Shown here in pieces: positions 1,924 to 30,323 of a stretch of DNA of 31,270 nt. Source of the DNA: Deinococcales bacterium (GTDB lineage Bacteria > Deinococcota > Deinococci > Deinococcales > JAAFIG01); the NCBI GenBank assembly GCA_043778225.1, contig JAYWGM010000036.1, positions 1 to 31,270 on the forward strand, written 5' to 3'. The stretch's first letter is position 1, and each line of letters begins with the position of its first letter. A program made the position numbers and the translations under genes. Below the pieces are notes generated by a model. It was not told the DNA's origin, ran no database searches, and was given only the letters and a program-made list of their open reading frames with translations.

Positions 1924-2640
1924 CTAATTTCTGAGCTTCTGTGCCAAGCGTTCAAGCGCACCTGCGGCAACACCCAGAATTGGCGCACCATGCCCAATCA
2001 CCAAATTCAGAGGCTCGAGTTTGGCGGCAACTGCCAAACTGCGTTTGGCTTGGGGCATATCTGGGGTAAAAGCGGCAATTGGCGCTCGCAGACCCAAGAT
2101 GTTGACGCAACAATCGCCGCCAAACAAAGTGCGGCTGCTTTGGATAAAGTAGCCAAGTTGCCCCGGGGCGTGTCCGGGCAAAGCGATAGTGCTTAAACCA
2201 GCCATGACCGACTCGAGGTTGTCTGCCCCTTGTAATTCCTGATGGACGACTCCCTTGACTGGGATTTGTTTAGTTTGGGCGCTTTGTACCGAGCGTTTCA
2301 TCCAACGACCAAAGGCGCTCAAGGTCTGGTCTTCAGGTAACTTTTGTGGCTCGAGTCCGCGAATTACGCGGGCTTCTTTGGCGTGTGCCCAAACGGTCGC
2401 CCCCGAGGCTGCCGCCAATGGCTCGAGGTCGCCGATGTGGTCTGGGTGTGCATGGGTAATCAGAATGTGTTTGACATCTTTGAGTGTCCAGTTTTTGCTT
2501 GCTAAGGCTTTGAGAATTTTTGCACTCGAGCCATTACCGCCAGTGTCTATCAGGGCTAAACCACCACTCGGTAGCTCGAGAATACCAATGTTAGCGATAC
2601 CGAGATTAACTGCCCAAATTCCTTGTGCGATGGCTTGCAT
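1924..2640 (-). CDS. MBL-fold metallo-hydrolase
   Basis: LIDTG, THAHPDHIG (HxHxDH), PGHAPG, GD and a terminal GHG metal ligand. Confidence 0.9.
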   Translation of the reverse strand: MQAIAQGIWAVNLGIANIGILELPSGGLALIDTGGNGSSAKILKALASKNWTLKDVKHILITHAHPDHIGDLEPLAAASGATVWAHAKEARVIRGLEPQKLPEDQTLSAFGRWMKRSVQSAQTKQIPVKGVVHQELQGADNLESVMAGLSTIALPGHAPGQLGYFIQSSRTLFGGDCCVNILGLRAPIAAFTPDMPQAKRSLAVAAKLEPLNLVIGHGAPILGVAAGALERLAQKLRN

Positions 2641-2646
2641 GGTTTT

Positions 2647-2652
2647 ATTCTA
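2647..2652 (-). promoter_or_regulatory. Putative leaderless -10 box TAGAAT, overlapping the TAG stop of the upstream kinase
   Basis: TAGAAT-N6-ATG(2640). The same geometry occurs at about 13 genes in the window. Confidence 0.55.
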
Positions 2653-5496
2653 CGCTGTTGGAAAAGTAAACTCGAGACTCGAGCCAGTATTTTCTTGGCT
2701 CGAGACCGCCATCTCACCGCCTGCCAGCGCCACCCGTTCGCGCATTCCAGTCAAGCCTAAATGCCCCTCGAGCAAGCCCTGATTGTTTTGTACCGCAAAA
2801 CCACGCCCGTCGTCTTCGACCAGCACTTCTAGGGTTTTCTCGAGAAAGCGTAAGCGCACCGAGCAATGGCTGGCATGGGCGTGTTTTTCGATGTTGGTCA
2901 GGGCTTCTTGCACCACACGGTAAATGGTCAGTTCTAAAGCCGTCTCGAGGCGGCGTTCAGTTCCTTGAATCTCGAGCCGTGCGTCGGTGCTGGTTTGTTC
3001 ACAGAGCCACTCGAGAGCAGGCAGCAACCCCAAATCATCCAAGGCACTGGGGCGTAAGTTACGGCTAAAGCGCCGCACACTGGCAATCGCAGCATCCACA
3101 TCGGAGCGAATATCGCGCACTCGAGCCACGGCATCGGGGGTTGGCATCGTCTCGAGGGCGGTTTCGAGGCGGTCTAAACGCCGTGTGATCGCTACCAAAG
3201 TTTGGGCGGTGTCATCGTGCAGTTCTCGGGCGATACGGCGGCGTTCTTCTTCTTGGGCTTGGGTAAATAAACTTAGGAAACTGCGTAACTCCGTAGCTCT
3301 GGCTTGAGCTTGTCCGCGTCCTTCAATCTCGAGCGCCAGTTTTTGTTGCTCCGATAAATCGCGGGCAATCACTAAGCCGCCTTGTAATTCGCCATTGCGA
3401 TAAAGCGCCGATAGTTTTATCTCGAGCATCGCAAGGCTGGTGTCGGCTCGTCTGACTTGGGCAGTGAAGGTGCTGGAAATTTGTTCGCGCATTGTGCGCC
3501 ACGCTTGGCGAGCGGCTTGGCTGCTTTCTGGCTCGAGTAAATCGTCAAAACGGCGCTCAAGCAGTTCGGAGGGGGCATAACCCAAGACCTCGAGTGCCGC
3601 ATTATTGGCATAAGTCACACGTCCTTCAAGGTCGGTTGAGATGATTAAGTCGGTTGCCCCCTCGGCAAGTAAGCTGTATTGCTGCTGTTGGGCTTGAATC
3701 CGTTCGTAGAGCCGTGCATTCTGAATTGCAAGCGCGGCTTGTTGGGCAATGGCGGCAGCCAAACGCGATTCTCGAGCCGTGATTTCCGAGGTTCTGGTGC
3801 TGTCGGCGTACAAAATTCCTAGCACTTGCCCTTGTACTTGAATTGGAGCGACCACAAATGCCTGAGCGCCCAAAAGGGTTGGTCCTTCGCTTTCGAGCGA
3901 TTCGTCTTGGGCTTCGTTAATCACAATTGGCTCGAGGTCAAAAATCAGTTTCACAAAGGCATCGTCGCTAATCACAAAGGGTTTGATAAAACCTTCTAAG
4001 CCATCCTTAAACCCTTGAGCATAGAGTTTACCAATTTCGGCACGTTGATTTTCGATGTCGAGCAGGTCAAAAAAACCAATAAAACTGCGTTCTAAATCCA
4101 GAGTCTCGAGCGCTTCGCTGCAAACCCTAGCCAGCACTTCATCGAGTTCGAGCGTACTGCTGGTGACTCGAGCCATTTCAAGCAGTGCATTCTCGTCGGC
4201 AAAGGCTCGAGCATTGCCCAGTGCCACCCCAGCCTGTGCCGCAAATGCCGATAAAGTCTCGAGTTCGTCGGGGCTAAAGGTTCGAGTTTGCGGGAAATAC
4301 AACGCCAATGCGCCATAAACTTCACCTCGAGCCATCAGTGGCGCTGCCAGTAAATCAGCCGCCGCAATCACTTCGGCAACTCGGGTGGATTCGAGCAGTA
4401 AATCTAAGCCGCGCTCGAGCAAGCCATCATCCTCAACCCCATAACTGGCTCGGACTTCGAGGACATTTCGCACCCGTTCAAAGACCGCACAAGCATTTGC
4501 ACCAAGCAACAGCACGGCAGTCTCGAGAATCGCTTCTAAAGTCTCGGAAATACTTAAACTGGCTGATAAACGCTGCATCACCAGCCGCAAGCCTTCGGCA
4601 CTTTGACGTTTGGCACTCTCGAGCAGATAAGAACGAGCATTTTCGATAGCCAGCGCCGCAATTTCAAGCATTGCCTGCCCCAAAGAGACCATTCGCTCCG
4701 AGATTTCGATGCCAGTCCGAGTGGTGTCGGCATACAAGACCCCCAGTGTTTCGCCCCTCGAGACAATCGGTAGCATCAAAAAGGCTTCTGCACCAAATTT
4801 ACGTGGGGTACTCGAAAAACTTCTGGTCGAGGACTTGACTTCGTTTAAGACAATTGGCTGCCCACGGTGCAGACGGGCAAAACTTTCTGCCGAAATTGCC
4901 AGCACTTCGTCGGACTCGAGTTCTGGAAACTGGTACTTAAAATAACCTCGAGCCTCCGCGCCGGCTTCGGATGCGCTCGAGAATAAGCCCAATAATCCAC
5001 GTTCTAAACCTAAGGCTTCGACAGTCTGGGTCAGGCTTTGCAGCAAAATTTTATCGAGTTCTAAGGTATTCGAGACCTGCCTAGAAAGCTCGGACAAGGC
5101 TTTGGTTTCTTTTTCGCGGCGCACCGCATCTCGAGCTAAACGAGCAGCTTCTAGGGCAATGCCGCTGAGTGCCAAAAAATGTGGCTCGAGCGACCCAGCC
5201 CCGCGAGTCTCGAGCCAACCAATCCGCCGTCCTCGAGCTTCGAGTGGCACAGCTTGTTCTAGCGCTAAACCAAGTGGTAAATCCTCAAAGCGCAGACCAT
5301 CGCCGCCTAAACTCGAGACTCCAAGCGCATTGGCAACCGCCACGGTTTCACGCCGCTCATGGTTCTCGAGCAGCACCCGCACCGATTGCGCCCCGCTTAG
5401 TTGCAGCGCGGTTCGGGCAATTAACTGCCCAGTGGCGGCTAAACCTCGAGTGGTGTGCAGTGTCTCGAGGTAAGTGTTTTCTTGGGCAAGGTTCAC
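2650..5496 (-). CDS. Cytoplasmic multi-GAF + PAS sensor histidine kinase (HisKA_3, NarX/UhpB type)
   Basis: 948 aa, GTG start. Repeated GAF motifs (LPIVSRGETLGVLYAD...AALAIENAR), PAS (DLEGRVTYANNAA), H-box EEERRRIARELHDD, and HATPase motifs QEALTNIEKHA, DDGRGF and GLTGMRER. Confidence 0.92.
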   Translation of the reverse strand: MNLAQENTYLETLHTTRGLAATGQLIARTALQLSGAQSVRVLLENHERRETVAVANALGVSSLGGDGLRFEDLPLGLALEQAVPLEARGRRIGWLETRGAGSLEPHFLALSGIALEAARLARDAVRREKETKALSELSRQVSNTLELDKILLQSLTQTVEALGLERGLLGLFSSASEAGAEARGYFKYQFPELESDEVLAISAESFARLHRGQPIVLNEVKSSTRSFSSTPRKFGAEAFLMLPIVSRGETLGVLYADTTRTGIEISERMVSLGQAMLEIAALAIENARSYLLESAKRQSAEGLRLVMQRLSASLSISETLEAILETAVLLLGANACAVFERVRNVLEVRASYGVEDDGLLERGLDLLLESTRVAEVIAAADLLAAPLMARGEVYGALALYFPQTRTFSPDELETLSAFAAQAGVALGNARAFADENALLEMARVTSSTLELDEVLARVCSEALETLDLERSFIGFFDLLDIENQRAEIGKLYAQGFKDGLEGFIKPFVISDDAFVKLIFDLEPIVINEAQDESLESEGPTLLGAQAFVVAPIQVQGQVLGILYADSTRTSEITARESRLAAAIAQQAALAIQNARLYERIQAQQQQYSLLAEGATDLIISTDLEGRVTYANNAALEVLGYAPSELLERRFDDLLEPESSQAARQAWRTMREQISSTFTAQVRRADTSLAMLEIKLSALYRNGELQGGLVIARDLSEQQKLALEIEGRGQAQARATELRSFLSLFTQAQEEERRRIARELHDDTAQTLVAITRRLDRLETALETMPTPDAVARVRDIRSDVDAAIASVRRFSRNLRPSALDDLGLLPALEWLCEQTSTDARLEIQGTERRLETALELTIYRVVQEALTNIEKHAHASHCSVRLRFLEKTLEVLVEDDGRGFAVQNNQGLLEGHLGLTGMRERVALAGGEMAVSSQENTGSSLEFTFPTA

Positions 5497-5514
5497 GGCG
5501 CTATCCTAATGCTT

Positions 5515-5553
5515 GGGAGTTCGTAGGACGAGGGTATGTTCCTACGAACTCCC
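5515..5553. repeat. Perfect 14-bp inverted repeat (GTAG-containing hairpin; REP-like and/or terminator)
   Basis: GGGAGTTCGTAGGA (5515-5528), 11-nt loop, TCCTACGAACTCCC (5540-5553). Confidence 0.8.
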
Positions 5554-5558
5554 CCGCC

Positions 5559-5596
5559 TTCTTGCCCTGAAAGCAGCACCTGACGGGCTGGGTCGC
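5559..5596 (-). repeat. Inverted dispersed copy of the 151-190 repeat
   Basis: Minus strand reads GCGACCCAGCCCGTCAGGTGCTGCTTTCAGGGCAAGAA, versus GCGACCCAAGCCCGTCAGGTGCTGCTTTAGGGGTCAAGAA at 151. Confidence 0.85.
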
Positions 5597-5609
5597 TCGT
5601 TGAGGGGGT

Positions 5610-6035
5610 TTAGGTGCTTTGGTCTTCTTTGCTCGAGTCTGTAGTTACCGCTTTGGGTTTATCTAGGTCAACTGGTTTCTCGAGTTCAACAACCGCTTGC
5701 GGGTTCTCGAGGTCAACAGCTTCTAGCTTCTCGAGTTCAACAATTTTTTCTTGAAATTCTGGTTCTGGGCTGACCGTGGTGGTTTTAACTTGGCGCGAAG
5801 CGTTTACGGTTCTGGATTGTAATTGCGTGACAATAAAGTAGACAATCCCCACCAAAATAGCGACTGGCACAAGCCAACGCAGCAATGCCACGATGATGCT
5901 GGCAAAACCAAGCAGCAAACCACCCAATAGGCTCAGCAGCCAACCAAGTAAGTATAAACCAGCCAAGCCGACGACCACAGCGACCAAGCCTTTGACGATA
6001 ACCTCGAGCGTATTGCGCCAATCTGTTTCTTTCAT
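5610..6035 (-). CDS. Hypothetical small membrane protein with a repetitive charged tail
   Basis: 141 aa. Long N-terminal hydrophobic segment, VELEK and VDL(E/D) repeats. TACAAT 6 nt upstream of the ATG. Confidence 0.8.
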   Translation of the reverse strand: MKETDWRNTLEVIVKGLVAVVVGLAGLYLLGWLLSLLGGLLLGFASIIVALLRWLVPVAILVGIVYFIVTQLQSRTVNASRQVKTTTVSPEPEFQEKIVELEKLEAVDLENPQAVVELEKPVDLDKPKAVTTDSSKEDQST

Positions 6036-6074
6036 AATTGTATTGTACGTTGTTTTTGGTGAAAAAGTTGCAGC

Positions 6075-6395
6075 TTAATCGGAACGTGAAACCATAAAGA
6101 CCAAAATTCCATGTAAGCCCAGTTTTTTGTCCACATTAAAAGCTATCCCAGAAAAAACAGCAATCCGTTGCTCGAGGATTTCTCGAAGCTCGACCAAAAC
6201 TTGGGCAATAATAAGCTCAGAACGGGCTTTTTCTGTACCCTTGCCAAAGACCAAGGGTAAGTTGCGTTTAAGCACTGCTTGCAATAATTGGCTGGCAGCA
6301 TGGGGCGCAATACTCGAGAACAAATCCTTGTGCTGCACAAACGAAAGTCCAAATCGCTGCACCAATAACTCGAGCGTAAAACCTTCGTAGGACAT
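6075..6395 (-). pseudogene. Probable C-terminally truncated restriction-endonuclease-like (HsdR_N-like PD-(D/E)xK) protein
   Basis: TEKARSELIIAQVLVE...FSG..FNVD..GL.G resembles the N-half of a ~200-aa family as I recall it. The ORF stops at 106 aa, before any EAK-type motif. Confidence 0.5.
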
Positions 6396-6414
6396 GGGTT
6401 TAGCCTAGCATGGT

Positions 6415-7701
6415 TTAGTCACTCGAGTGGCGGCGAATGTTGATGACGCTAAAAAATGCCAGTAAGGTAAACAAAAACGTTAAAAGAATCACGCCATCCA
6501 TCTTTAAGGTCGAGACAAAAATGCCGCCCAAAAGCGAGCCACCAATTAAGTTTCCGCCAGCCAGAAAAATGCTGTATAAGCCCATCACCACACCACGGTC
6601 TTCTGGGAAATCCTCGGAAATATCGGCGAGGTAAGCAAGTGCCACGGGCGTAAAGCCAGCTTGAAAAAATGCCCCAACCAGCAGAATGATAAACCAAATG
6701 TTGGTTGGCTCGAGTGGTGTTGGAATCACCAAGTTCAGTCCGAGTTCTGGGTGATTTAAGAAAAACCAACTGACCGAAATCGCCAGTAAGCCTCCACCCG
6801 CATACAGCATTGGGGTGCTGCGCTTACCAGATTTTGCCCGTTCAGCCCAAAAAATCAGTCCAGCCAAAAAGGCAGCCGCGAAAAACCCAAGGTACAAACT
6901 GACCTGTTCTGGCTTAAATGCACCAACCAGAGCTTGACCGGTCTCGAGTGGGATTTTTGCCGCCGACAAGATATTTTGAACATGAACAATCCATAGCCCA
7001 ATTACGGCGGTGGCTGCCAACCAAGCCGGTAAAAAACGTACCAAACGCTTGTTCCCAAGTGCTTTGGTGTAATCAGTCCAAGAGCGGCGTTTTTCGATTC
7101 GCACCCCAATACTTGGCAGAAAAAACCAAAAAACCAAAGCCCCCAGCACATAGACCCCAGCCAAAAATGGATAACTGCCCGTGCCAAGAATGCTCCAGAG
7201 CAGTGGTCCAAGAATGATGCTGCCGCCAATCACACCAAGTAAGGTCACAATTTCATAAATCCCCATGATTCGCGCTCGGTGCGGACTGCCATCGGTTAAA
7301 TCGGACAAATAACCAAGTGTGGCTGGAATCGCCGCCGCCGCGCTGACTCCTTCGATAATCCGAATCAAAAACAGCATCTCGAGACTCGAGGTTAGGGGAT
7401 AGAGCAGCAAAGCGACAGCGCCGATTACGGGTGCAATTGCCATCAGTAGTTTTCGTCCTACACGGTCGGTTAAAGCCCCAAAGATAGGCGCAAGAAAAAA
7501 TTCGGTGGCATAGTACCCAGCCGCCACAAACCCCACTTCTAAGCCTTCGCGCCCCAGCGATTTTAAGTAAAAATTAAGTGTGCCAGTTGCTAAGCCGCCA
7601 CTGACGCGCAGCAAAAACGTACCCAACAAGACGATGATCGCCCCATAGACCAGCAGGTTTGGCTCGAGTCGGCGTGAATTTTGATTCTGAATAGGTCCCA
7701 T
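6415..7701 (-). CDS. MFS transporter
   Basis: About 12 hydrophobic segments. Motif A GALTDRVGRK, plus RIIEG and DRGVVMGLY. Confidence 0.92.
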   Translation of the reverse strand: MGPIQNQNSRRLEPNLLVYGAIIVLLGTFLLRVSGGLATGTLNFYLKSLGREGLEVGFVAAGYYATEFFLAPIFGALTDRVGRKLLMAIAPVIGAVALLLYPLTSSLEMLFLIRIIEGVSAAAAIPATLGYLSDLTDGSPHRARIMGIYEIVTLLGVIGGSIILGPLLWSILGTGSYPFLAGVYVLGALVFWFFLPSIGVRIEKRRSWTDYTKALGNKRLVRFLPAWLAATAVIGLWIVHVQNILSAAKIPLETGQALVGAFKPEQVSLYLGFFAAAFLAGLIFWAERAKSGKRSTPMLYAGGGLLAISVSWFFLNHPELGLNLVIPTPLEPTNIWFIILLVGAFFQAGFTPVALAYLADISEDFPEDRGVVMGLYSIFLAGGNLIGGSLLGGIFVSTLKMDGVILLTFLFTLLAFFSVINIRRHSSD

Positions 7702-7771
7702 GTAGTGAAAGAATTTTAACCCAATTTAATGAGGGAGTTTTTCCCCTACGAAATTACGATATGGTTTTGCT

Positions 7772-8422
7772 ATGAAGCGATTTGATTACAACTTTGTAGA
7801 ATATAAGGTCATCCAAATGGTGACTGGACAAATTCAAGAAAATGCCTATTTGGTCTGCCATGAATCGGGCGATGCCCTTTTGATTGACCCCGGCGATGAT
7901 GCCGAAGCGATTTTAGAAGTGATTCGGCTCGAGAAGGTCAAAGTTCTAGCCATTCTTTTGACCCATGCCCATTTTGACCACATCGGTGCAGTGCAAGTGA
8001 CTCGAGTTGCTTTGGCTTGCCCAGTTTATTTACACCAAGACGCTTGGACTTCGTACTCGAGAGCGCACATTGCCCCAGCCCGTTACAACTTGGCGTTTGT
8101 CCAGCCAGAAGCCCCAGACCACAACCTCGAGTTGGGGACTCTGCAATTTGGCGCAATCGAACTTACAGCCTTGTTTACGCCCGGACACGCCCCCGGACAC
8201 GTGGCGCTGTATTCAAAAGCTGGCTTTGTGCTGTCGGGCGATGCGCTTTTTTATGGCAGTGTTGGGCGCACTGATATTCCAGGTGCGGACACCGCTTTGT
8301 TGCTTGAGCGCATCAGAACCCAGTTGTATACCTTGCCAGACGAAACAACGGTGCTGTCGGGTCATGGGCGCGATACGACCATTGGGCGCGAGAAAGCCAC
8401 GAATCCGTTTACGCAGGAGTAA
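7772..8422 (+). CDS. MBL-fold hydrolase (glyoxalase II-like, YcbL/GloC type)
   Basis: ENAY, IDPG, LTHAHFDHIG, TPGHAPG, GDALF.GSVGRTD, GHG, TTIGREK.TNPF. Confidence 0.92.
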   Translation: MKRFDYNFVEYKVIQMVTGQIQENAYLVCHESGDALLIDPGDDAEAILEVIRLEKVKVLAILLTHAHFDHIGAVQVTRVALACPVYLHQDAWTSYSRAHIAPARYNLAFVQPEAPDHNLELGTLQFGAIELTALFTPGHAPGHVALYSKAGFVLSGDALFYGSVGRTDIPGADTALLLERIRTQLYTLPDETTVLSGHGRDTTIGREKATNPFTQE

Positions 8423-8525
8423 AGTAACCCCTTTACCCAAAACTAAAAGTCTGATAAATACCTCGCTCACAGACTCGAGGGCTTGCTTCACGTAACTCAT
8501 GGCGTTCAGCGCGATATTCTTTTAT

Positions 8526-9128: not shown

Positions 9129-9131
9129 ATC

Positions 9132-10010: not shown

Positions 10011-10017
10011 GAGTTCA

Positions 10018-10842: not shown

Positions 10843-10925
10843 AACTTAGCTCACCAACTTGTTAGAATACCCAAGATTCAAAAATTTAATGGCAGTTCGA
10901 GTTTTCTCGAGATGGGGGTTCTAAC

Positions 10926-12995: not shown

Positions 12996-13006
12996 GCGCT
13001 GGTGAG

Positions 13007-13035
13007 AACTCGAGGTTTATTCCCTCGAGTTTTTT
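13007..13035 (+). terminator. Intrinsic terminator of hppA
   Basis: Stem AACTCGAGG, loop TTTATTC, stem CCTCGAGTT, followed by a T-tract. Begins 11 nt after the stop. Confidence 0.85.
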
Positions 13036-14424: not shown

Positions 14425-14446
14425 ACAACATGAGTTCGGATTAAAT

Positions 14447-14472
14447 GTAGGGACAGACCCCCGTGTCTGTCC
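14447..14472 (+). repeat. GTAG-family REP-like palindrome between convergent genes
   Basis: GTAG + GGACAGAC-CCCCGT-GTCTGTCC, a perfect 8-bp stem. Confidence 0.65.
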
Positions 14473-14491
14473 TCTATAAATGGGTTTTGTT

Positions 14492-14547
14492 CCTCGAGCA
14501 AGGTGAGTTTAGCCGCCTCGAGCAAGGTGAGTTTAGCCGCCTCGAGC
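14492..14547. repeat. Exact 24-bp tandem duplication bounded by CTCGAG
   Basis: (CCTCGAGCAAGGTGAGTTTAGCCG)x2 + CCTCGAGC. Confidence 0.95.
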
Positions 14548-14910
14548 CAAGTACCCCAGTGCTGCTGCAAAACACCAACCATTTGCTAAAACCATCCCTT
14601 GGACAACTTTGGGCGGGTCTCGCAGTACCTTCCACCAAAAACCGCCTTGGATTAAGCCCCTCGAGTAGATAATTCCACCGCCAACATAGACCAAAGTGTA
14701 CTCAATCACAAAGCGAATTCCCAGTGCGCCGCCACCCGAGAGAAAACCAGCCGTCAGGGCAGCAATATAGACAATATGGATAGCGTTTAATGCCAAATAA
14801 AAAACTGGAGGTAATTCCTTTTTTTGTCGTAAAAAAATACCCGCCCAGATGCCAAGCGCTGCAAAGCCCACCAAAATTACCCAAGATAACCCAATAAATA
14901 AACTTGCCAT
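14533..14910 (-). CDS. Hypothetical small multi-pass membrane protein (125 aa)
   Basis: MASLFIGLSW..., about 4 hydrophobic segments. TAATAT 5 nt upstream of ATG 14910. The longer 352-aa ORF is a shadow extension. Confidence 0.7.
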   Translation of the reverse strand: MASLFIGLSWVILVGFAALGIWAGIFLRQKKELPPVFYLALNAIHIVYIAALTAGFLSGGGALGIRFVIEYTLVYVGGGIIYSRGLIQGGFWWKVLRDPPKVVQGMVLANGWCFAAALGYLARGG

Positions 14911-14947
14911 GGTGGATATTATGGCTGGTTTCTCGAGGGACGTATGC

Positions 14948-15042
14948 TGCCCACCGATGCAGGACTCGTATGCCCACCGATGCAGGACTCGTATGCCAAC
15001 CGATGCAGGACTCGTATGCCTACCGATGCAGGACTCGTATGC
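14948..15042. repeat. 4 x 23-bp tandem repeat (TGCC[C/C/A/T]ACCGATGCAGGACTCGTA)
   Basis: Units start at 14948, 14971, 14994 and 15017. One variable position, no spacers. Confidence 0.95.
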
Positions 15043-15115
15043 TGTTTTGCGGATGCACGTCTCTGGCAAGCTCGAGTTAAAATAACGACATGATTTTAGA
15101 AAAGAGGTTTTTTTA

Positions 15116-16372
15116 ATGCCACTCGAGGCTGGTATTTTGTCTACGCTGGTTTCCGAAGTTCTCGAGCGCTGCGACGATTTAGCGCTTCTGACCGAAGAAA
15201 CTGGGCGGGTCACCCGCACTTTTTTGTCGTATCCAATGAAAGAAGTCCATACCCTGCTTTCGATGTGGATGCGTGAGGCTGGGCTGACGGTGCGAATAGA
15301 TGCGGTTGGAAATGTGATTGGCAGACTCGAGGCAGCCGATACTCGTACCCTAATGATTGGTTCGCACATTGATACCGTGCCAAATGCTGGTAAATATGAT
15401 GGAGTCTTGGGTGTGATGCTGGGGATTGCTGTTGCTAAAGCGCTGCAAACTTCGGGCTTGGTCTTGCCTTTTTCGCTCGAGGTGGTGGCTTTTTCGGAAG
15501 AAGAAGGGGTGCGCTTTGGCTTGCCATTTATTGGTTCAAGGGCGGTGGTTGGTACACTTAGCCCAGACCTCTTGGAGCAGCAAGATGCCAATAAAATTAG
15601 TCTGGCTCAGGCGATTACTAACTTTGGCTTAAATCCATTTGATTTATCAGCAGCTCGAGCCAAAGCACTTTTGGGCTATTTAGAAATTCATATCGAACAA
15701 GGTCCGGTTCTCGAGGCTCGAGGTTTGGCGCTGGGTGTGGTGCAGGGCATTGCTGGTCAGACTCGAGCCACCCTAACTTTTGTCGGACAAGCGGGTCATG
15801 CTGGCACAACTCCAATGAATTTACGCAAAGATGCACTGGCGGCGGCGGCTCAAGTCGTTCTCGAGGTTGAACGCTTTGCCAAAGCCACACCCGGACTGGT
15901 GGCAACCGTGGGGATGCTCGAGGTTTTGCCAGGGGCTGGTAATGTCATTCCAGAGCGCACCAGCCTCAGTCTTGATGTGCGACATCTCGAGGATGCACTG
16001 CGAAAACGGGCGGTTGCAGAACTGCTTGATTTTGCTTGGCACACGGCTCGTCGGCGTGATTTGGGCTTTAGTCATGAAATCCGCCTCGAGCAAGCTGCCA
16101 GTCCGTCGGACGAGATGCTGGCTGGTTTTTTGGGCGACGCACTTGAGGACTCTGGGCGCAAACGCTTTCTATTACCATCTGGCGCGGGTCACGATGCGAT
16201 GATTTTAGCGGGTATGACCCGTACTGTGATGCTTTTTATTCGCTCTCCGGGCGGAATTTCGCATCATCCGAGCGAAAGTGTCCAAACTGGCGATACTCGA
16301 GCGGCTTTAGAAGTGGCATATCGTTTTTTAGAGAAAATTGCGGCTGCGCCAAGTGTGATTTGGAATCCTTAA
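15116..16372 (+). CDS. M20-family amidohydrolase (allantoate amidohydrolase / N-carbamoyl-L-amino-acid hydrolase type)
   Basis: GSHIDTVPNAGKYDGVLG, EEEGVRF, EIHIEQGP, GHAGTTPM, SGAGHDA, GISHHP. Confidence 0.92.
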   Translation: MPLEAGILSTLVSEVLERCDDLALLTEETGRVTRTFLSYPMKEVHTLLSMWMREAGLTVRIDAVGNVIGRLEAADTRTLMIGSHIDTVPNAGKYDGVLGVMLGIAVAKALQTSGLVLPFSLEVVAFSEEEGVRFGLPFIGSRAVVGTLSPDLLEQQDANKISLAQAITNFGLNPFDLSAARAKALLGYLEIHIEQGPVLEARGLALGVVQGIAGQTRATLTFVGQAGHAGTTPMNLRKDALAAAAQVVLEVERFAKATPGLVATVGMLEVLPGAGNVIPERTSLSLDVRHLEDALRKRAVAELLDFAWHTARRRDLGFSHEIRLEQAASPSDEMLAGFLGDALEDSGRKRFLLPSGAGHDAMILAGMTRTVMLFIRSPGGISHHPSESVQTGDTRAALEVAYRFLEKIAAAPSVIWNP

Positions 16373-21200: not shown

Positions 21201-21281
21201 TTTGATATTCAAGCACCATCAGGCACTATTTGCAAGCTGTCTTGCTTTTTTGACCCCAGCAACTGGCGTAATCTCGAGGCG

Positions 21282-22921: not shown

Positions 22922-22991
22922 CCTGGTATTTTACGCGCAAAAGTAGGGAAACGGTGGTAGTTTAGGGGTATTAATTTGCTGGGAGGCGCAG

Positions 22992-25628: not shown

Positions 25629-25682
25629 AAATACGCCAAAATACGGATACCTAAGAACGCTGTAGTTGGGTAGTCTGTTGAG

Positions 25683-26717
25683 ATGACACCGCAGAAAATA
25701 GACCTCAAGACAGCCTCGGACACCGAACTTTTACCGCTGCACGAATTCTGGCTCGCCATAAGAGCCGAATTACTGCCAGATGACCCGCCAATTCCGTGGT
25801 CAGAGCGCAGTAAAGGCTGGCGTGAACCACCACCAGCCCTTGAGCGGCGAGTTTACATTATTAAAAATAACCAAGAAGTGATTGGTCTCGCCGATGCTGA
25901 TTGGCGAAGCGATGACCTCGAGAACCCAGAATCGGGCTGGTTAGATTTGTATGTCGCGCCAAGCCATTACCAACAGGGGCTAGGCACAAAACTGCTGCGA
26001 ACCATGCTCGAGGATATTTACGCCCATGGTCGCAGAAAATTATTTGCTGTCACCACTAACATTCATGCTGGTGGTCAGCCTTTTGCCGAAAAAATTGGGG
26101 CGAAATTTGGACAAGAAGAACACGCCAATCAATTGCTGTTTTCCGAAATGAACCATGAATATATAAAGCGCTCACTCGAGAACGCTCCAACCGATAAATA
26201 CGAACTGGTCTGGTACGAAAATACGTATACCGACGACGAAACTGAACTGCAAAAAATCTGTGATGCCTTTGCGATTATGAACACTGCCCCGCGTGGCGAT
26301 TTAGAATTTAACGATTGGGTCATGACTCCAAAAAAACTCCGAGAAGAGGCTGAAGAAAACCAAAAACAAGACCGTCAATGGTGGCTCTGCCTTGCTAAAA
26401 ACCTCGAGACTGGAGTTTATGATGGTTTTACCGAGACTGGCTGGCATCCAAACCGACCAAAAATAGCGGTGCAATACGGTACTGGGGTAGACCCTAAAGC
26501 CCGAGGACACGGACTTGGTGCATGGCTCAAAGCTGCAATGATCCAAAAAATGTTGCTTGAACGCCCAAGCGTAGACCGAATCCGCACCGGCAATGCCGAT
26601 AGCAATGCACCGATGTTAAAAATCAATCATACTTTGGGTTTCAAACCATTTATTGCCAGAGCCGAATGGCAAATAGATGTTGCCAAGACTCTTGAGATTT
26701 TACGCGCTCGAGTTTAG
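25683..26717 (+). CDS. Tandem-domain GNAT acetyltransferase
   Basis: Two acetyl-CoA motifs (QQGLGTKL and [10 protein letters not shown]), plus [19 protein letters not shown]. Confidence 0.9.
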
Positions 26718-27199
26718 CGTTTGCCGACACCAAAATCGGTTGGACGCAACAAATGCTCCAAACAACGAGCATAATCCACGCCAATTTTAGCATCCTCGAC
26801 CAAATCTGCCACACTGGTATCCTCGAGAACTGCCAAAATCGCATCGCGTACCCGAATCCAAATCCGACTGCGGGCATGGCAACGTGGCTCTTCGGGGCAG
26901 CTTTTATGCCAGTTGCGCGAAGCACACGATAACGCCGCCACAGGACCATCAATGGCTCGCAGCACATGAGATAAAGGAATGGCACTGGCTTCTCGAGCCA
27001 AGGCGTAACCACCACCAGCCCCTTTTTTGGCTGCCACAATGTCCTGAGTTGCCAGCGCTGCCAATAAACGCACCAAATACGGTTTTGGCACATGGGTTGC
27101 CTCGGCTATTTGGTCGCCATGCACCCAAGAACTCGAGTCTTGCAGTCCAAGAAAAGCCAATGCCTTAAAAGCATAAATATCTGTATTTGAAAGTCGCAT
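26714..27199 (-). CDS. Rrf2-family transcriptional regulator with three Cys (possible Fe-S ligands)
   Basis: YAFKAL, IAE...VPKPYL, KGAGGGY.LAR, C-x8-C-x5-C. Confidence 0.92.
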
Positions 27200-27207
27200 A
27201 AAACAGT

Positions 27208-27564
27208 TTACTCGTTTTCAGAAACATGGCTGTTGTGCTGTGCCACCAGCTTCCAAGCCTCTCCAACGCGGGTAAACACAAAGGTCGAGCGCCCAAACCA
27301 TAAACTCGAGTCTTGATTGCCCGGATATTGAAATTCACAAAAGACCAAACAAACGTGTTCGAGCATTTCAAATTCGATATTGCGAAACTGCAAACTGGTA
27401 AAGACTGGATTTTTGAGGATTCCTTTAATCCGCTGCCCCTTATTCTGATGCCGTGCCACGGTGCTGGTAAAGCGAAAATTCTCGGCGATTAATCCATCGA
27501 GAACAACCGCATCTTGGGCATTTAAGGCTTGAAGCAGCGAATCAAAAGTCTCTTTTAAGCTCAT
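27208..27564 (-). CDS. NTF2-like (DUF4440/SnoaL) protein
   Basis: 118 aa. ALNAQD...LIAENF, with C-terminal TFVF...WKLVAQHNS. Confidence 0.8.
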
Positions 27565-28388
27565 AACACAGACTCTACAAGTCCACCGACCCGAACAGCA
27601 AGCGCCATGCTATCTCGAGAAAAAAACCGCGCCCTAAGCTCGGAGGGTTTGTCCATCTGGAAGCCCTGAGCCGCCACCAAATCATGCACCCCACTCGGCA
27701 TATGTGCTGCCTTATACCCGCAAAGGCTGGCAAGACTAAACGAACCCGCATTGTCCTCGAGCAAACCCTTGTGCGGCGCAAAAAAACGATACTCGAGATT
27801 GGCGCGGCTCGAGGTAAACGACACCACAATACAGCCATTCAAGTTATGAATTTTGAGTAATTGACCCAGCACCTCAAAATTTGGGCTAAACTCAAGCGCA
27901 GATTCACGCACAGGCACGATTACATTATGCTTCTCGAGCGTCCCAGCACACAACACCGAAAGTTCAGTCTCGAGGTCGGAAATTTGTAGATTCAACGCCT
28001 CGAGCCACGGTAAGCTCTCTGACGGCAATGGCAAAATATGCGTATCGGGCTGGGCAGCCCACGCAATCCCATCTTTTATTTCCACCTCGAGAATACTGGC
28101 TTGCATTTGCACGGTGCAATTTTGCCCAAGGTGATGCGCCACGACCAACGCCCCAGAATCGGACTCGAGCTTTTCTTTGCCTGCATTGGTAAAAAAACGG
28201 ACTAAAACAGCTTTGGCATGGTTGGGCGAGGCAAGCCTAGCCCCTACGGGTTTTGTGATGAATGCTGTGATAGGCGCGTTGCTCGAGACCGCTATTTCGG
28301 GCATGATGGATTCTGGCGTGGGTTCATCAATAATTGCAAAACGCTTACCGCCGTTGGCAGCAGCCTTGAAGACATCGTAATATTTCAC
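27561..28388 (-). CDS. Divergent PhzF/DAP-epimerase-fold protein with degenerate active-site motifs
   Basis: YYDVF...GGK, VRFFT..E, RFFAP.KG..ED, AQGFQMDKPS, VRVGG. The usual CGH is replaced by SDS. GTGA overlap with the upstream gene. Confidence 0.75.
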   Translation of the reverse strand: MKYYDVFKAAANGGKRFAIIDEPTPESIMPEIAVSSNAPITAFITKPVGARLASPNHAKAVLVRFFTNAGKEKLESDSGALVVAHHLGQNCTVQMQASILEVEIKDGIAWAAQPDTHILPLPSESLPWLEALNLQISDLETELSVLCAGTLEKHNVIVPVRESALEFSPNFEVLGQLLKIHNLNGCIVVSFTSSRANLEYRFFAPHKGLLEDNAGSFSLASLCGYKAAHMPSGVHDLVAAQGFQMDKPSELRARFFSRDSMALAVRVGGLVESVL

Positions 28389-28864
28389 CACGGAACTTCC
28401 TCGGCTGACCCACTTAGCCAAAGCTCCGAAGAGTTACCTTTGTGCCATTCTTTTGGTTCTTTAATCCATACCAGTTCAGCTTCAAGGCGAACATTGACAA
28501 TCCCAAAATCGTGTTCGGTCTCTAAATTCAGGGTTGAATCAGCTAATTCATCAGCACCCCGCAAATAGGTAAATATTGCAAATAATCCAAAGTAATAGTT
28601 TTCTCGAGTAGCAAGTTCGTCTTGATCGTAGACCTCGACCCAAAAATCTTCTCGTTCAGAATTTAAGACATATGCAATCAGAGTGGATTGAAAAGTGGAA
28701 GCCAAGCCCATCATTGAATGATAATCAAACCAGTCTTCATGTCCTCGAGCATCTATCACTGTTACGTTTTGAGAGTCGCCAGAAATTAAACTTGTTGCAT
28801 CGAATTCCTTGATGATTAGAGATTCTAACATTGCCTCAACATCTTGGTCTGTTGGTTCATTCAT
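28385..28864 (-). CDS. Acidic 159-aa protein resembling the PhzF N-terminal domain only
   Basis: Aligns by eye to the neighbour at 28861-29751: LET..FGIVNVRLEA..VW..P versus LETNLGIQNAKLEA..AW..P, and SSELWLSGSAEEV versus SSVWIGGKAMEV. Confidence 0.6.
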   Translation of the reverse strand: MNEPTDQDVEAMLESLIIKEFDATSLISGDSQNVTVIDARGHEDWFDYHSMMGLASTFQSTLIAYVLNSEREDFWVEVYDQDELATRENYYFGLFAIFTYLRGADELADSTLNLETEHDFGIVNVRLEAELVWIKEPKEWHKGNSSELWLSGSAEEVPW

Positions 28865-29751
28865 ACTTTGACCTCCATCGCCTTCCCACCAATCCAGACA
28901 CTAGAGACAGAACCATCCAGCACCTCACAGCGCACCTCGAGTTTTGAGGGTTGGCGCATGGCATAGCCTTGAGCGCCACTAAAAGAACGTTTCCCATTGT
29001 CAAAAAACTGATTTGCACCCAAATAAGCTGCTAATGCTGAGTGTGCGTTGCCTGTTGCTGCATCCTCAAGAACCGTGTTTTCTTGGACTGAGAAATGCCG
29101 AGAATCCGTAAAGCATCCGCCTCGGGCTGGGAAAGTAAAAATCATAATTCCAGTCGTGCCAGTCTCGAGACAAAGCGCTTTAATTTCCTCGAGATTTGGT
29201 TCGATGGCATCGAGTAAAATTGTGCTTGGGACGGCGCAGACTATTTTGCTTCGTCCAACTCCCGCACCCATAATCGGTAAGTCCTCGTGTAAATCTATTT
29301 CCTCGAGTCCAAGGGCAATTGCTACGGCTTCTCGCTCGAGCGTAATTGCCCAAGCACTTGGATTTGGATATTCGAGCCAAGCCGTTCCAGCCTCGAGTTT
29401 TGCATTTTGAATGCCCAGATTTGTCTCGAGTTGAAAAACATCTTTTGGTACTTCCCAGCCGTTCAATCCGCCTCGAGCTTGAATGGCTGTTAGCGCCGCG
29501 ATAGTGCCATGCCCACAAACATTTTCTTCGATGTAAGGCGTAAAAAACCGTAAACGAAGCGGTAGGGGAGACTCGTCCTCAAATAAAGTATCGGAAATAC
29601 CCACAAAAACCGTGGCAGGAGCGCCAATACTCGAGGCTAGTTCGATCATTTTGCGTTCAGATTCAAGGTTAAACCCAAAAACCACGGCGGCTCGATTCCC
29701 ACCTTTGCCATTGGTGGTAAACGCATTGAATTCTAGAATCTCGAGACTCAC
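28861..29751 (-). CDS. PhzF-family epimerase/isomerase
   Basis: NAFT..G.GGNRAAVV, LRFFTP..E..VCGHGT, EDAATGNA, QGYAMRQPS, VWIGG. Confidence 0.88.
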   Translation of the reverse strand: MSLEILEFNAFTTNGKGGNRAAVVFGFNLESERKMIELASSIGAPATVFVGISDTLFEDESPLPLRLRFFTPYIEENVCGHGTIAALTAIQARGGLNGWEVPKDVFQLETNLGIQNAKLEAGTAWLEYPNPSAWAITLEREAVAIALGLEEIDLHEDLPIMGAGVGRSKIVCAVPSTILLDAIEPNLEEIKALCLETGTTGIMIFTFPARGGCFTDSRHFSVQENTVLEDAATGNAHSALAAYLGANQFFDNGKRSFSGAQGYAMRQPSKLEVRCEVLDGSVSSVWIGGKAMEVKV

Positions 29752-30323
29752 GAATCTTCTGGCTCGGTGGCTGGTAAATTTTGATACAATTCGGACAGCA
29801 CAATTTCAAGCTCTAAACTCGAGAAGGTCAGCCGCATATCGCCCGAGATTCTCTCATAAATCCATTTGTTTTCTTGGCGCGAATAAATCTCGGCAACCGC
29901 TTCGTTCTGCGATAAAAGGACGTACTGCTCGAGTGATGCAATCGTTTGGTACTGCTCCCACTTCTCGCCACGGTCAATGGCTTCGGTGCTGCTGGACAGC
30001 ACTTCGACGATGATACTCGGACGCAAAACCGTTCGACTCGAGTCAAGGCTTGAATCGCACGTCACCATCAAGTCTGGGTAGTAACCCTTGCCACTTGGCA
30101 TTCGGGCAATCACATCATTAAAGTAAATCGAACAACCTTTAGCTTGCACGAAAGGCAAAAGTCGCGCACAAAGCATAATCCCAAGTGAATTGTGTCGTTT
30201 TGTGCCGCCAGCCATGACAAACAGATTACCATCTACGAATTCATGCCGCACCTGAGAAGTCATTTCAAAACGCACGTAATCTTCAAAAGTCAATTCGGTT
30301 TTAACAGGCGCAACTCGAGGCAT
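29748..30323 (-). CDS. Uma2 (DUF820) family endonuclease-like protein
   Basis: RHEFVDG..MAGG..RHN, YYPDLMV, EVLSSST..IDRGEK..Y. ATG 30323 preceded by TATACT-N6. Confidence 0.92.
   Translation of the reverse strand: MPRVAPVKTELTFEDYVRFEMTSQVRHEFVDGNLFVMAGGTKRHNSLGIMLCARLLPFVQAKGCSIYFNDVIARMPSGKGYYPDLMVTCDSSLDSSRTVLRPSIIVEVLSSSTEAIDRGEKWEQYQTIASLEQYVLLSQNEAVAEIYSRQENKWIYERISGDMRLTFSSLELEIVLSELYQNLPATEPEDS

Follow-up and report, generated by a model that had tools for sequence, protein, structure and literature searches.

Occurrence of CTCGAG in the window and the genome

The 31,270-bp stretch analysed here (the window; contig JAYWGM010000036.1 of assembly GCA_043778225.1, Deinococcales bacterium, JAAFIG01) raises the question of why a single palindromic hexamer, CTCGAG, recurs through nearly all of its length. 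The initial annotation had counted about 203 copies by hand and called this a large excess. The exact number is 203; in 100 dinucleotide-preserving shuffles of the window the average was 4.09 (sd 2.24) and the highest count 13, none of them reaching the observed value. Its bounds for the dense span were also correct, with 1 site to the left, 202 within and 0 to the right. The window is laid out as follows.

1-1923: motif-poor left flank, 1 site, GC 0.43, with a DUF4832/DUF4874 gene at 351-1826
1924-30320: motif-dense native DNA, 202 CTCGAG, 7.1 per kb, over 28 genes and their spacers
2650-5496, minus strand: GAF-PAS histidine kinase gene; no other gene of the window is as rich (36 sites, 12.6 per kb); orthologue test case below
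2671-2683: doublet CTCGAGNCTCGAG, with further copies at 7378-7390 and 15710-15722
14492-14547: 24-bp tandem repeat in a spacer, 2.3 copies, 100% match, one CTCGAG per unit
29748-30449, minus strand: Uma2-family putative PD-(D/E)XK endonuclease gene (PF05685, 100 bits), 4 CTCGAG sites
30321-31270: right flank without CTCGAG; GmrSD_C gene (type IV restriction-like) at 30497-31108, GC 0.33

The word had been said to occur in nearly every native gene and between genes, and sites are present in 29 of the 30 called genes, all but the GC-poor GmrSD_C gene, while the 2,848 bp of non-ORF DNA hold 15 sites where 0.7 would be expected. Sites within window ORFs fall in the three frames 117, 33 and 38 times, against synonymous-shuffle means of 17.4, 3.4 and 3.2. 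The unit is the hexamer itself, as first described, since no flanking position carries more than 0.034 bit. The three doublets lie exactly where they were annotated, with a spacing of 7; the genome holds 123 of them and 0 copies of the abutting form CTCGAGCTCGAG, which would generate the purged word GAGCTC. Both flanks probably represent imported DNA, the left one more recently acquired than the native span and the right one recently acquired. The gene responsible for the motif is absent from the window, as had been supposed.

The studied genome (G000) is a fragmented MAG of 4.03 Mb in 107 contigs, 89% complete. It contains 24,877 CTCGAG sites, or one per 162 bp, and every one of the contigs holds at least 3.99 per kb, so the excess is not confined to the one first seen. 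CTCGAG is the top hexamer of the genome (49,754 counts on both strands, the next unrelated hexamer reaching 10,650), and its observed/expected ratio (O/E) is 26.7, 47.5 and 15.1 under zero-, first- and second-order models. The ratio drops to 3.6 and 1.16 at Markov orders 3 and 4 because pentamer counts already include CTCGAG. A palindrome that is the commonest word of its length and far above these three lower-order expectations is what is operationally recognised as a highly iterated palindrome, or HIP (after Elhai 2015).

A force acting on the DNA word

Genome ORFs contain 20,822 CTCGAG sites. Permuting synonymous codons within genes leaves about 2,215 (2,208-2,220), and permuting codon order leaves 991-993; codon and dipeptide usage therefore do not remove the excess. 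The sites divide by frame into 12,313, 4,176 and 4,333, against about 1,540, 376 and 297 after synonymous shuffling, and coding DNA is no denser than the rest (6.16 vs 6.24 per kb). CTCGAG thus shares with HIPs an enrichment in all frames and in non-coding DNA beyond codon and dipeptide usage. Leu-Glu is the most over-used dipeptide of the proteome, its frequency more than doubled, and 69% of Leu-Glu pairs are encoded as CTC-GAG. The genome-wide process suspected from the window therefore overrides codon and even amino-acid choice, and the force targets the DNA word itself, not RNA or protein.

An excess of the tetramer TCGA had been a further possible explanation. However, 24,877 of 36,442 TCGA (68%) belong to a CTCGAG, and TTCGAA (34 sites), GTCGAC (49) and ATCGAT (224), the remaining NTCGAN palindromes, are all depleted, so the abundance of TCGA is a consequence of CTCGAG and not its cause. 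Spacing of the sites is random (CV 1.00), with a 3-bp coding periodicity only. The one-letter neighbours, grouped in nine classes, are all 18-171 times rarer than CTCGAG per mutational route (49,754/2,696 = 18.5 to 49,754/290 = 171). At each position, transition neighbours are the most frequent. Judging from these counts, a fixation bias of about e^3 per site, a scaled advantage of about 3, would suffice for the neighbour ratios and would be on a par with strong selection on codon usage. The initial annotation had pointed out that avoidance is the norm for restriction sites, and in this genome 51 of 64 palindromic hexamers have an O/E below 0.3 compared with 12% of non-palindromes, CTCGAG being the lone exception.

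Distribution, conservation and turnover

The closest relatives of the studied genome are 'Deinococcales bacterium' MAGs, and all 19 genomes of the family carry 4.3-6.8 CTCGAG per kb, compared with 0.01-0.27 in a Deinococcus-like genus (g7) and 0.6-1.1 in a Thermus-like one (g9). Among 80 named loci, 19 have 4.4-10.8 per kb, all of them from 'Deinococcales bacterium' MAGs with a GC of 0.48-0.64, and the remaining 61 do not exceed 0.67. A metagenome scan with a 631-aa protein found no relative. The window itself recurs in 2 sequencing runs of a single study, one of which may be its source; both exist as contigs, which carry no information on methylation or polymorphism. In four genomes of the same genus, between-species conservation of CTCGAG sites is 58-70%, against 24-25.5% for all hexamers, at a DNA identity of 76-77% that is too low for substitutions to be polarised into gain and loss; background sequence decays faster than CTCGAG sites do. 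Orthologues of the window's histidine kinase share 38-65% of site columns within the genus and 3-27% with other genera. Their alignment has 100 distinct CTCGAG columns over 14 motif-rich taxa, so density is held while positions turn over. Motif-free stretches of at least 1.5 kb number 19 in the genome where 2.2 are expected, and recently acquired DNA lacks CTCGAG. The description of the word as a HIP1-like palindrome in a non-cyanobacterial genome is borne out by a trait that belongs to a whole clade, with sites conserved beyond the neutral background.

Elsewhere in the order the trait is graded. The ratio of observed CTCGAG to the synonymous shuffle is 3.3, 3.2, 2.8 and 1.9 in other families, and sister-family genomes have 1.4-3.4 sites per kb, an approximately 3-fold codon-corrected excess. 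In the Allomeiothermus silvanus megaplasmid 58 sites were counted where 30.2 +/- 4.2 were expected, a 1.9-fold excess after codon correction. The suggestion of CTCGAG enrichment in some Meiothermus genomes is thus supported in a weaker form. A purge of palindromes is general in the order (pooled O/E 0.29-0.67), and in Deinococcus-like genomes it extends to CTCGAG. Both the 2-3-fold codon-corrected excess in other families and the purge in Deinococcus-like genomes are new. Our search of the literature on HIPs, on Deinococcota and Meiothermus, and on over-represented CTCGAG/XhoI sites found no earlier report, and those portions of the HIP papers that were available mention neither CTCGAG nor Deinococcota.

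High-GC relatives do gain some CTCGAG through the preferred codons CTC and GAG, and in a Thermus-like genome (G140; 0.89 per kb, ratio 1.1) codon usage explains all of it, in keeping with an artefact, whether of base composition, codon usage, assembly or the presence of synthetic DNA. In the studied genome the excess survives every control, and it appears in 107/107 contigs and in 19 independent assemblies. An artefact is refuted and has practically no probability left.

Methyltransferases and endonucleases

In S3 Table of Blow et al. (2016, PMC4752239), SMRT data assign m6A methylation of CTCGAG to M.Mru1279II (99.5% of sites), M.Mch9957IV (94.1%) and M.Mhy14884I (94.6%), enzymes of Meiothermus ruber, M. 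chliarophilus and Marinithermus that are given there without a cognate endonuclease. The same source lists no CTCGAG methylase for M. silvanus DSM 9946. The proposed link to a methyltransferase gains real support from these three cultured Deinococcota, but no methyltransferase orthogroup spanning the whole family was found in its 19 genomes. XhoI-family endonucleases (PF04555) occur in 0 of the 19; the search works, as the model matches 6 of 151 genomes of the order, and it covers the XhoI family, one of possibly several endonuclease families of CTCGAG specificity. Any CTCGAG methylase in the family would accordingly be an orphan with respect to XhoI-type partners. How such enzymes become orphans is shown by G016, in which an intact orthologue (52% identity) of the G029-type methylase is directly followed by an XhoI-family gene broken by stop codons.

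Several candidate writers were examined, and none serves the whole family. The enzyme C65 of the studied genome combines HTH, N6_Mtase/Eco57I and TaqI_C domains, the Eco57I+TaqI_C architecture of the relatives' enzymes with an HTH added; it is a candidate CTCGAG methylase for this genome but was rejected as a universal writer, being restricted to G000, G010 and G055 (3/19). A gamma-class methylase of 501 aa (C92), also rejected as the writer, has a true homologue only in G005 (43%), giving 2/19. C5 methylases have their largest orthogroup confined to genus g1 (7/8); none is present in G035 (91% complete), and the closed genome G025 has one unrelated copy. Beta-class (PF01555) methylases are not common to the family and were not found in G025, and D12-class (PF02086) methylases, also not common to it, are 25-28% identical between genomes. 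Among the ORFs retrieved, the Eco57I+TaqI_C architecture occurs in 5/19 family genomes and not in G025, whose large enzyme is a Type ISP. Outside the family, the G029-type CTCGAG methylase does not track CTCGAG density, as it is present in G103, G107 and G043 at 0.8-0.9 sites per kb and absent in G116, G128, G126 and G051 despite 2.4-3.4. The motif density of the methylase genes themselves was of no use as a native/foreign filter, nearly all being native-like.

Other candidate factors

The Uma2 family (PF05685), which has a gene in the window and which from its Pfam description we take to be expanded in cyanobacteria, was rejected as a factor, as its copy number does not track the trait across 151 genomes; g9 has 10 to at least 21 copies with no effect on the word, and there are 2 copies in G029, 1 in G116 and 0 in f4. 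Across the genome, CTCGAG is most densely clustered in an array of 24 bp x 5.5 that immediately precedes a SAM-I riboswitch and metK, an appealing position given that SAM donates the methyl groups. A short version occurs only in G015 (2 of the 13 family upstream regions examined), the cluster was rejected as a regulatory site and no function is claimed for it. Tandem arrays with a period of 21-27 bp make up 227 of the 446 in the genome, and 45 of the 227 carry CTCGAG against about 14% by chance. A preference of CTCGAG-bearing arrays for this period was also rejected, as it is not motif-specific and the peak is largely an effect of the TRF score threshold.

Comparison with known systems

Set beside HIP1 (GCGATCGC) and the alternate cyanobacterial HIPs (GGCGCC, GCsGC, rCCGGy, TCGATCGA and GGGATCCC; Elhai 2015, PMC4390886; Xu et al. 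2018, PMC5861425), CTCGAG is likewise a GC-rich palindrome that outnumbers all other words of its length and exceeds the expectation of several models tens-fold. Like them it is found in all frames and in non-coding DNA, is shared by a clade, conserved beyond background and scarce in imported DNA, and is linked, in relatives, to endonuclease-free methyltransferases, in a genome that otherwise avoids palindromes. CTCGAG differs in being another word in another phylum, with 6 rather than 8 nt and about 6,200 sites per Mb against 300-2,700 for HIP1 (Elhai 2015, Table 2). It also differs in its methylation, in relatives m6A by gamma-class XhoI/PaeR7I-type enzymes where HIP1 has the GATC/CGATCG pair, and in having no conserved methylase among 19 genomes where HIP1 methylases are described as generally present (Elhai 2015). 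HIP1 proper, with its GATC and CGATCG orphan methylases, is not what this genome holds, as GATC (2,061 sites) has an O/E of 0.13 and CGATCG of 0.20. The CTCGAG system works like a HIP but is not HIP1.

The uptake sequences of Pasteurellaceae (USS) and Neisseriaceae (DUS), whose uptake specificity has been demonstrated experimentally, are non-palindromic words of 9-12 nt at about 1 per kb, often placed as inverted pairs in terminators. Like CTCGAG they are over-represented genome-wide and in genes in all frames, distort the proteome, are rare in foreign DNA and common to related species, and a molecular drive based on recombination can account for both. CTCGAG departs from their form: it is palindromic, has 6 nt, occurs at 6.2 per kb and lies between flanks that carry almost no information. 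XhoI/PaeR7I-type systems have the same recognition word, and relatives carry the gamma-class Eco57I+TaqI_C methylase; the endonuclease gene that identifies such systems is the one missing from the 19 family genomes, and restriction systems make their sites rarer whereas CTCGAG is here 27-fold commoner. In Nocardia, the main text of Blow et al. (2016, PMC4752239) reports orphan-methylase CTCGAG sites clustered at the replication origin, in contrast to the genome-wide abundance seen here.

Possible mechanisms

We tentatively favour, at somewhat less than even confidence, the reading that CTCGAG is a HIP-type word created and kept chromosome-wide by a weak, steady, directional force, through a methylated mark of kin DNA spread by recombination. 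The word would be the target of XhoI/PaeR7I-type N6-adenine methyltransferases (an Eco57I-class catalytic plus a TaqI-like specificity domain), which recur in Deinococcota, usually without an endonuclease. Methylation of CTCGAG would label DNA as coming from kin, homologous DNA that arrives with many such labels may be taken up, spared or recombined better, and alleles with CTCGAG would then spread by recombination, a molecular drive as proposed for DNA uptake sequences and as lately described for methylated HIP1 when cyanobacteria are transformed. The extreme density in the family would be the long-run equilibrium of this drive. The studied genome encodes ComEC, a protein so nearly universal that its presence says little about CTCGAG-specific uptake. 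Against an uptake mark, a hexamer gives little specificity as a signal, and we know of no sequence-specific uptake in Thermus or Deinococcus. In cyanobacteria, the accessible part of a preprint (10.1101/2024.09.10.611283) reports that methylated HIP1 sites raise transformation more than 100-fold with no restriction system involved. The enriched megaplasmid of M. silvanus, which has no CTCGAG methylase in the list of Blow et al. (2016), speaks against a drive based on methylation.

A small per-site force, equal coding and non-coding densities and a perfect palindrome suited to a dimer would also fit a selected binding site, occupied by dimers of an abundant protein of the nucleoid, of replication or of segregation that perhaps reads the methylation of CTCGAG, under weak selection on overall density. 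The origin clusters that the main text of Blow et al. (2016) describes in Nocardia suggest that the word can serve a replication role. We think this explanation rather unlikely, as the spacing is random, the flanks have no extended consensus, the only strong cluster is a tandem repeat unconserved in the family, no candidate protein was found and the origin is not locatable in a fragmented MAG. Biased repair directed by methylation, as in Elhai's HIP model or in a very-short-patch-like process, would be keyed to the methylated word and would convert near-cognates into CTCGAG. CTCGAG methylases do recur in cultured relatives, and in S3 Table of Blow et al. (2016) Vsr-type genes (V.Nsp..., V.RpaIVP) accompany the m5C enzymes that Nocardia and Rhodopseudomonas have for CTCGAG. 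Such repair is unlikely here, since no single neighbour is specifically depleted and the pattern is that expected from plain decay of the word. A Dcm/Vsr system would bring a Vsr gene and a depleted T:G-derived neighbour; the studied genome (89% complete) has no match to Vsr (PF03852), and the T:G-derived neighbours CTTGAG/CTCAAG and TTCGAG/CTCGAA are the commonest. The Deinococcota enzymes, moreover, are m6A, a base that does not deaminate to a mismatch, and a family-wide methylase was not found.

The purge of palindromes, in this genome and through the order, and its extension to CTCGAG in Deinococcus-like genomes would be compatible with a by-product of restriction conflict, that is, a broad anti-palindrome pressure from which a long-resident methylase protects CTCGAG alone, codon preferences doing the rest. 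Exemption predicts an O/E near 1, not 15-47, and neither off-frame enrichment, non-coding enrichment nor extra Leu-Glu, all three of which are seen. This explanation, which we rate as quite improbable, is contradicted as a sufficient cause and could survive only as a permissive condition. A Chi-like signal that stops a RecBCD/AddAB-type helicase-nuclease and so spares word-rich DNA is most improbable. Some Chi words are short, the B. subtilis 5-mer for example, but CTCGAG is a palindrome with no polarity, unlike known Chi sites. The HIP1 preprint (10.1101/2024.09.10.611283), in the part available, raises such a role. The RecB/AddA/AddB nuclease domain PF12705 (E<=1e-8), however, is rarest where the trait is strongest, in 5 of the 18 other family genomes and none in G000 against 22/22 in the trait-neutral g9, and a Chi-like role with such nucleases was rejected on this anticorrelation.

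Significance

To our knowledge, HIP1 has gone unexplained for three decades and has been thought a cyanobacterial peculiarity. CTCGAG, as its denser counterpart in another phylum, suggests a general phenomenon with two or more origins. We consider it possible, though doubtful, that this is a second, independent and denser HIP origin, grading into Meiothermus-type relatives with m6A-methylated CTCGAG (orphan XhoI-type methylases), and that, if the methylated mark biases uptake or recombination of homologous DNA, HIPs are general methylation-dependent 'self' watermarks that spread by molecular drive. The force on CTCGAG rewrites about 10,000 dipeptides of the proteome. In these genomes the word is a sharp marker of native versus imported DNA, and its abundance biases binning and the analysis of codon usage, as well as any cloning or restriction work that relies on XhoI or TaqI. 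The graded series includes cultured thermophiles with a published CTCGAG m6A methylome, which makes the question experimentally approachable. If the watermark reading is true, the phylum would offer natural experiments in three states: hyper-enriched in this Deinococcales family, mild with a known methylase in Meiothermus and Marinithermus, and purged in Deinococcus.

CTCGAG in the window and its genome

The initial annotation had put the number of CTCGAG copies (the target of XhoI/PaeR7I) in the window at about 203; a recount of the 31,270 bp gave exactly 203, and its three doublets lie where it placed them. Dinucleotide-preserving shuffles of the window (n=100) had a mean of 4.09 copies and a maximum of 13, and none of the 100 reached 203. 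One copy lies before position 1924, 202 lie within 1924-30320 (7.1 per kb) and none beyond 30320. CTCGAG is present in 29 of the 30 called genes, the exception being the GmrSD_C gene at the right end, which looks like a recent acquisition. It is one of two adjoining defence-type genes at the contig end, and two further ORFs and two short repeated elements were also noted.

Features of the window
29748-31108 (pair), Uma2-family nuclease gene, 4 CTCGAG, GC 0.46
29748-31108 (same pair), GmrSD_C type IV restriction-like gene, 0 CTCGAG, GC 0.33
14533-15591, minus strand, 352-aa ORF with no Pfam match
15116-16372, plus strand, M20 peptidase gene
14441-14476, short element, GGGACAGAC...GTCTGTCCC hairpin in a spacer
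5557-5600, short element

The 352-aa ORF overlaps the peptidase gene on the opposite strand and is probably spurious, kept open by the scarcity of stop-forming words. Copies of the two short elements, 88-100% identical, are found on many contigs of genomes of the same genus, and the one at 14441-14476 probably belongs to a small dispersed REP-like repeat family.

The window spans contig C36 from end to end. Its own genome (4,029,277 bp in 107 contigs, 48.7% GC, completeness score 89%) contains 24,877 CTCGAG sites, one per 162 bp. CTCGAG is its top hexamer by about threefold, and the next-ranked words overlap it. Observed/expected ratios (O/E) were 26.7, 47.5 and 15.1 under zero-, first- and second-order models; the values of 3.6 and 1.16 at Markov orders 3 and 4 are no valid test because the pentamer counts are themselves built from CTCGAG. 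The excess is not a product of composition, since the 20,822 sites in 2,941 long ORFs fell to 2,208-2,220 when synonymous codons were permuted within genes, and to 991-993 when codon order was permuted. It also extends beyond the window's contig, the lowest density of any contig being 3.99 per kb. The frequency of TCGA does not account for it either: 68% of all TCGA lies within CTCGAG, and the remaining NTCGAN palindromes are under-represented (TTCGAA 34, GTCGAC 49 and ATCGAT 224 sites). The genome-wide excess proposed in the initial annotation thus holds.

Sites are enriched in all three ORF frames (12,313, 4,176 and 4,333) and are as dense in ORFs (6.16 per kb) as elsewhere (6.24 per kb). 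Their spacing is near-exponential (CV 1.00) with the 3-bp coding period as the sole periodicity, and flanking positions carry at most 0.034 bit of information. Stretches of at least 1.5 kb free of CTCGAG number 19 against 2.2 expected, and the two flanks of the window are of that kind.

The proteome is distorted accordingly. Leu-Glu, which has twelve possible spellings, is written CTC-GAG in 12,289 of 17,710 cases (69%), and no dipeptide of the proteome exceeds its expectation more strongly (17,776 against 7,645 expected, O/E 2.33). Tripeptides that permit CTCGAG in the two other frames realise it in 56% and 42% of cases. The pressure for CTCGAG therefore operates on DNA, overriding synonymous and some non-synonymous choice.

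Conservation and turnover of sites

Four same-genus genomes share 76-77% DNA identity with the window and conserve 58-70% of its CTCGAG sites, against 24-25.5% for all hexamers. In the gene for the window's 948-aa histidine kinase, 38-65% of site columns are held in common with same-genus orthologues and 3-27% with other genera; the orthologues carry 9-40 CTCGAG each, and 100 different site columns are used over 14 taxa. Sites are kept, but their positions are not fixed. Counted per mutational route, CTCGAG outnumbers each of its one-letter neighbours 18-171-fold; at each position the commonest are transition neighbours. By a crude inference, a mutation-fixation balance would need no more than a bias of about e^3 per site.

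Distribution over the order

The nearest relatives of the histidine kinase are in metagenome-assembled genomes labelled 'Deinococcales bacterium'. Among 80 fetched loci, 19 had 4.4-10.8 CTCGAG per kb, all from such genomes (GC 0.48-0.64); the remaining 61, including 40-odd named Deinococcus species, had at most 0.67 per kb. Order-wide counts were made in a sample of 151 genomes, with per-kb densities resting on rounded genome sizes. All 19 genomes of the window's family, from five genera, have 12,028-35,442 sites each (4.3-6.8 per kb), with 36-275 doublets per genome against 0 for the reversed control. Densities of 1.4-3.4 per kb occur in several genera of two other families, and the Thermus-like genus g9 (2.1-2.5-Mb genomes) has 0.6-1.1.

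CTCGAG sites in genomes outside the family
G128, 12,522
G126, 10,767
G051, 10,639
G116, 9,836
G064, 9,787
G147, 8,868
G029, 7,570

The 35 genomes of genus g7 have only 37-942 sites each (0.01-0.27 per kb, O/E about 0.1). This genus was taken as Deinococcus because named Deinococcus loci behave alike. No XhoI-family endonuclease gene was found in the 36 genomes of the family that contains it.

Because high-GC genomes favour the codons CTC and GAG, the synonymous-shuffle control was also applied to relatives, using 24-80-kb samples. O/E was 7.8-9.1 in the family, 3.3 in G029, 3.2 in G128, 2.8 in G051 and 1.9 in G001, with off-frame and non-ORF enrichment in these last four, and 1.1 in G140 of g9. 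In a named organism, the first 50 kb of plasmid pMESIL01 of Allomeiothermus silvanus DSM 9946 has 58 CTCGAG in annotated genes, against an expected 30.2 +/- 4.2 (largest 38 of 50 shuffles). The enrichment that the initial annotation suggested for some Meiothermus genomes is thus borne out in a milder form. The trait is graded across the order, and Deinococcus-like genomes do the opposite of the family and purge the word.

Loss of other palindromes

Among the 64 palindromic hexamers, O/E in the window's genome falls below 0.3 for 51 and below 0.1 for 34 (median 0.077), against 12% and 2% of non-palindromic hexamers. GGGCCC, GACGTC and AGGCCT occur once each and GGCGCC three times; GGCC has just 131 copies in 4 Mb, and the O/E of GATC is 0.13. 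This near-global loss of 6-bp palindromes points to unusually broad past restriction pressure. GAGCTC, which is CTCGAG reversed and also a palindrome, has 24 sites here and 0-25 in most family genomes, being relaxed in G035 (568), G080 (161) and G030 (114). Abutting CTCGAGCTCGAG is absent from the window's genome, which has 123 of CTCGAGNCTCGAG. The purge is general in the order (pooled O/E 0.29-0.67). In trait-bearing lineages CTCGAG alone escapes it; in Deinococcus-like genomes CTCGAG is lost like any other palindrome.

Methylases and XhoI-family genes

Type II m6A enzymes for CTCGAG with no cognate endonuclease are listed in S3 Table of Blow et al. 2016 (PMC4752239) for cultured relatives: M.Mru1279II of Meiothermus ruber DSM 1279 (99.5% of sites detected), M.Mch9957IV of M. 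chliarophilus (94.1% of sites) and M.Mhy14884I of Marinithermus hydrothermalis (94.6% of sites; gene annotated as Eco57I family). That table has no CTCGAG enzyme for M. silvanus DSM 9946, so A. silvanus combines a mild excess with no listed CTCGAG methylase. In the searched text of that article, abundance of the word is not reported.

Both G029 and G008 encode a methylase of the Eco57I class that carries a TaqI-like specificity domain; the two proteins share only about 30% identity over 206 residues. The G029 enzyme has a patchy set of orthologues at 48-88% identity (G069, G014, G061, G016, G103, G107 and G043, with a broken copy in G064), and their presence does not correspond to CTCGAG density over the order. 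At G016:C1:1093949-1096226 an intact orthologue is followed directly by an XhoI-family (PF04555) gene broken up by TGA and TAG stop codons. This gene neighbourhood supports CTCGAG specificity for the G029-type enzyme, and the locus has the appearance of a restriction system on its way to an orphan methylase, its endonuclease decaying beside the surviving methylase. XhoI-family genes turned up in 6 of the 151 genomes, all of them outside the window's family of 19.

No methylase common to the whole family was found when the C5, beta, D12, C65-type, C92-type and Eco57I+TaqI_C enzymes of the 19 genomes were compared. C5 enzymes were not found in G035, closed genome G025 has one unrelated copy, and the largest C5 orthogroup is confined to one genus; beta-class enzymes were not found in G025 and G030, and D12-class enzymes are 25-28% identical between genomes. 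Two methylases of the window's genome were rejected as family-wide enzymes, C65 (HTH, N6-MTase/Eco57I and TaqI_C) being in 3 of 19 genomes and C92 in 2. The Eco57I+TaqI_C architecture was seen in 5 of 19 among the ORFs fetched, several of them cut by contig ends, and was not found in G025, whose large enzyme is Type ISP. Cultured relatives have proven CTCGAG methylases that are themselves patchy and not orthologous to one another, which makes this lack of a conserved orthogroup weaker counter-evidence to methylation than at first sight.

All 22 genomes of g9 have an ORF of 396-668 aa that matches gamma-class N6-methylases in its N-terminal part, with 25-36% identity to residues 21-192 of C92; judged by these matches, it may be a conserved methylase of that genus.

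Other candidate agents

The distribution of Uma2 nucleases, one of which the window encodes, does not follow the trait, and RecB/AddAB-type nuclease domains are rarest where it is strongest. The densest CTCGAG cluster of the genome is a tandem array of 5.5 copies of 24 bp (C44:70041-70171, L296 4041-4171; 98% match), each unit containing one CTCGAG. The array precedes, by about 45 bp, a SAM-I riboswitch (RF00162, 53.9 bits) at the head of a metK-MTHFR operon. A short version (2.5 copies of a related unit) occurs in G015 only, giving 2 of 13 family genomes examined, the 11 others having none; a period of 21-27 bp is not specific to CTCGAG, as it also occurs in tandem repeats lacking the word.

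Origin of the excess

Among known systems, the HIP family of cyanobacteria, to which the initial annotation had likened the word, comes closest. CTCGAG has the operational features of HIP, but it is not HIP1: it differs in word, phylum and methylation chemistry in relatives, and the missing family-wide methylase orthogroup is a real difference. HIP1 reaches 300-2,700 per Mb (PMC4390886), and CTCGAG here is two to twenty times denser. Our literature searches gave no account of abundant CTCGAG in Deinococcota. New here are the graded distribution beyond the family with its check in a named organism, the confirmation from a primary source that cultured relatives methylate CTCGAG, the decayed XhoI gene adjoining a methylase, the palindrome-purge context, and the tests that spoke against several candidate agents.

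What preserves and creates CTCGAG sites is a force at the DNA level, specific to the word and common to the whole family. It could act through selection for the binding site of an abundant DNA protein, which we consider rather unlikely. Biased repair directed by methylation is doubtful; Vsr was not found in the window's genome. Exemption from the palindrome purge is improbable as the explanation and would be a permissive factor only. A Chi-like signal is very improbable, given the rarity of RecB/AddAB-type nuclease domains where the trait is strongest, and an artefact has a negligible chance of accounting for the pattern.

Our tentative preference, held at somewhat below even confidence, is for a methylated mark of kin DNA spread by recombination. 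The pattern of evidence matches uptake sequences, CTCGAG resembling them in its even spread, its use of all frames, its distortion of the proteome and its scarcity in imported DNA; CTCGAG is also the target of orphan methylases in relatives. Cyanobacterial transformation is reported to improve more than 100-fold with methylated HIP1 sites, no restriction system being involved (preprint 10.1101/2024.09.10.611283), and HIP1 has been argued to be an uptake sequence (2026 paper, PMC13756078). The window's genome encodes ComEC, which permits an uptake model and adds no support to it. Under the kin-mark reading, methylated CTCGAG would mark DNA as kin, the mark would better the fate of incoming homologous DNA, and the word would then spread through the family's genomes via recombination.
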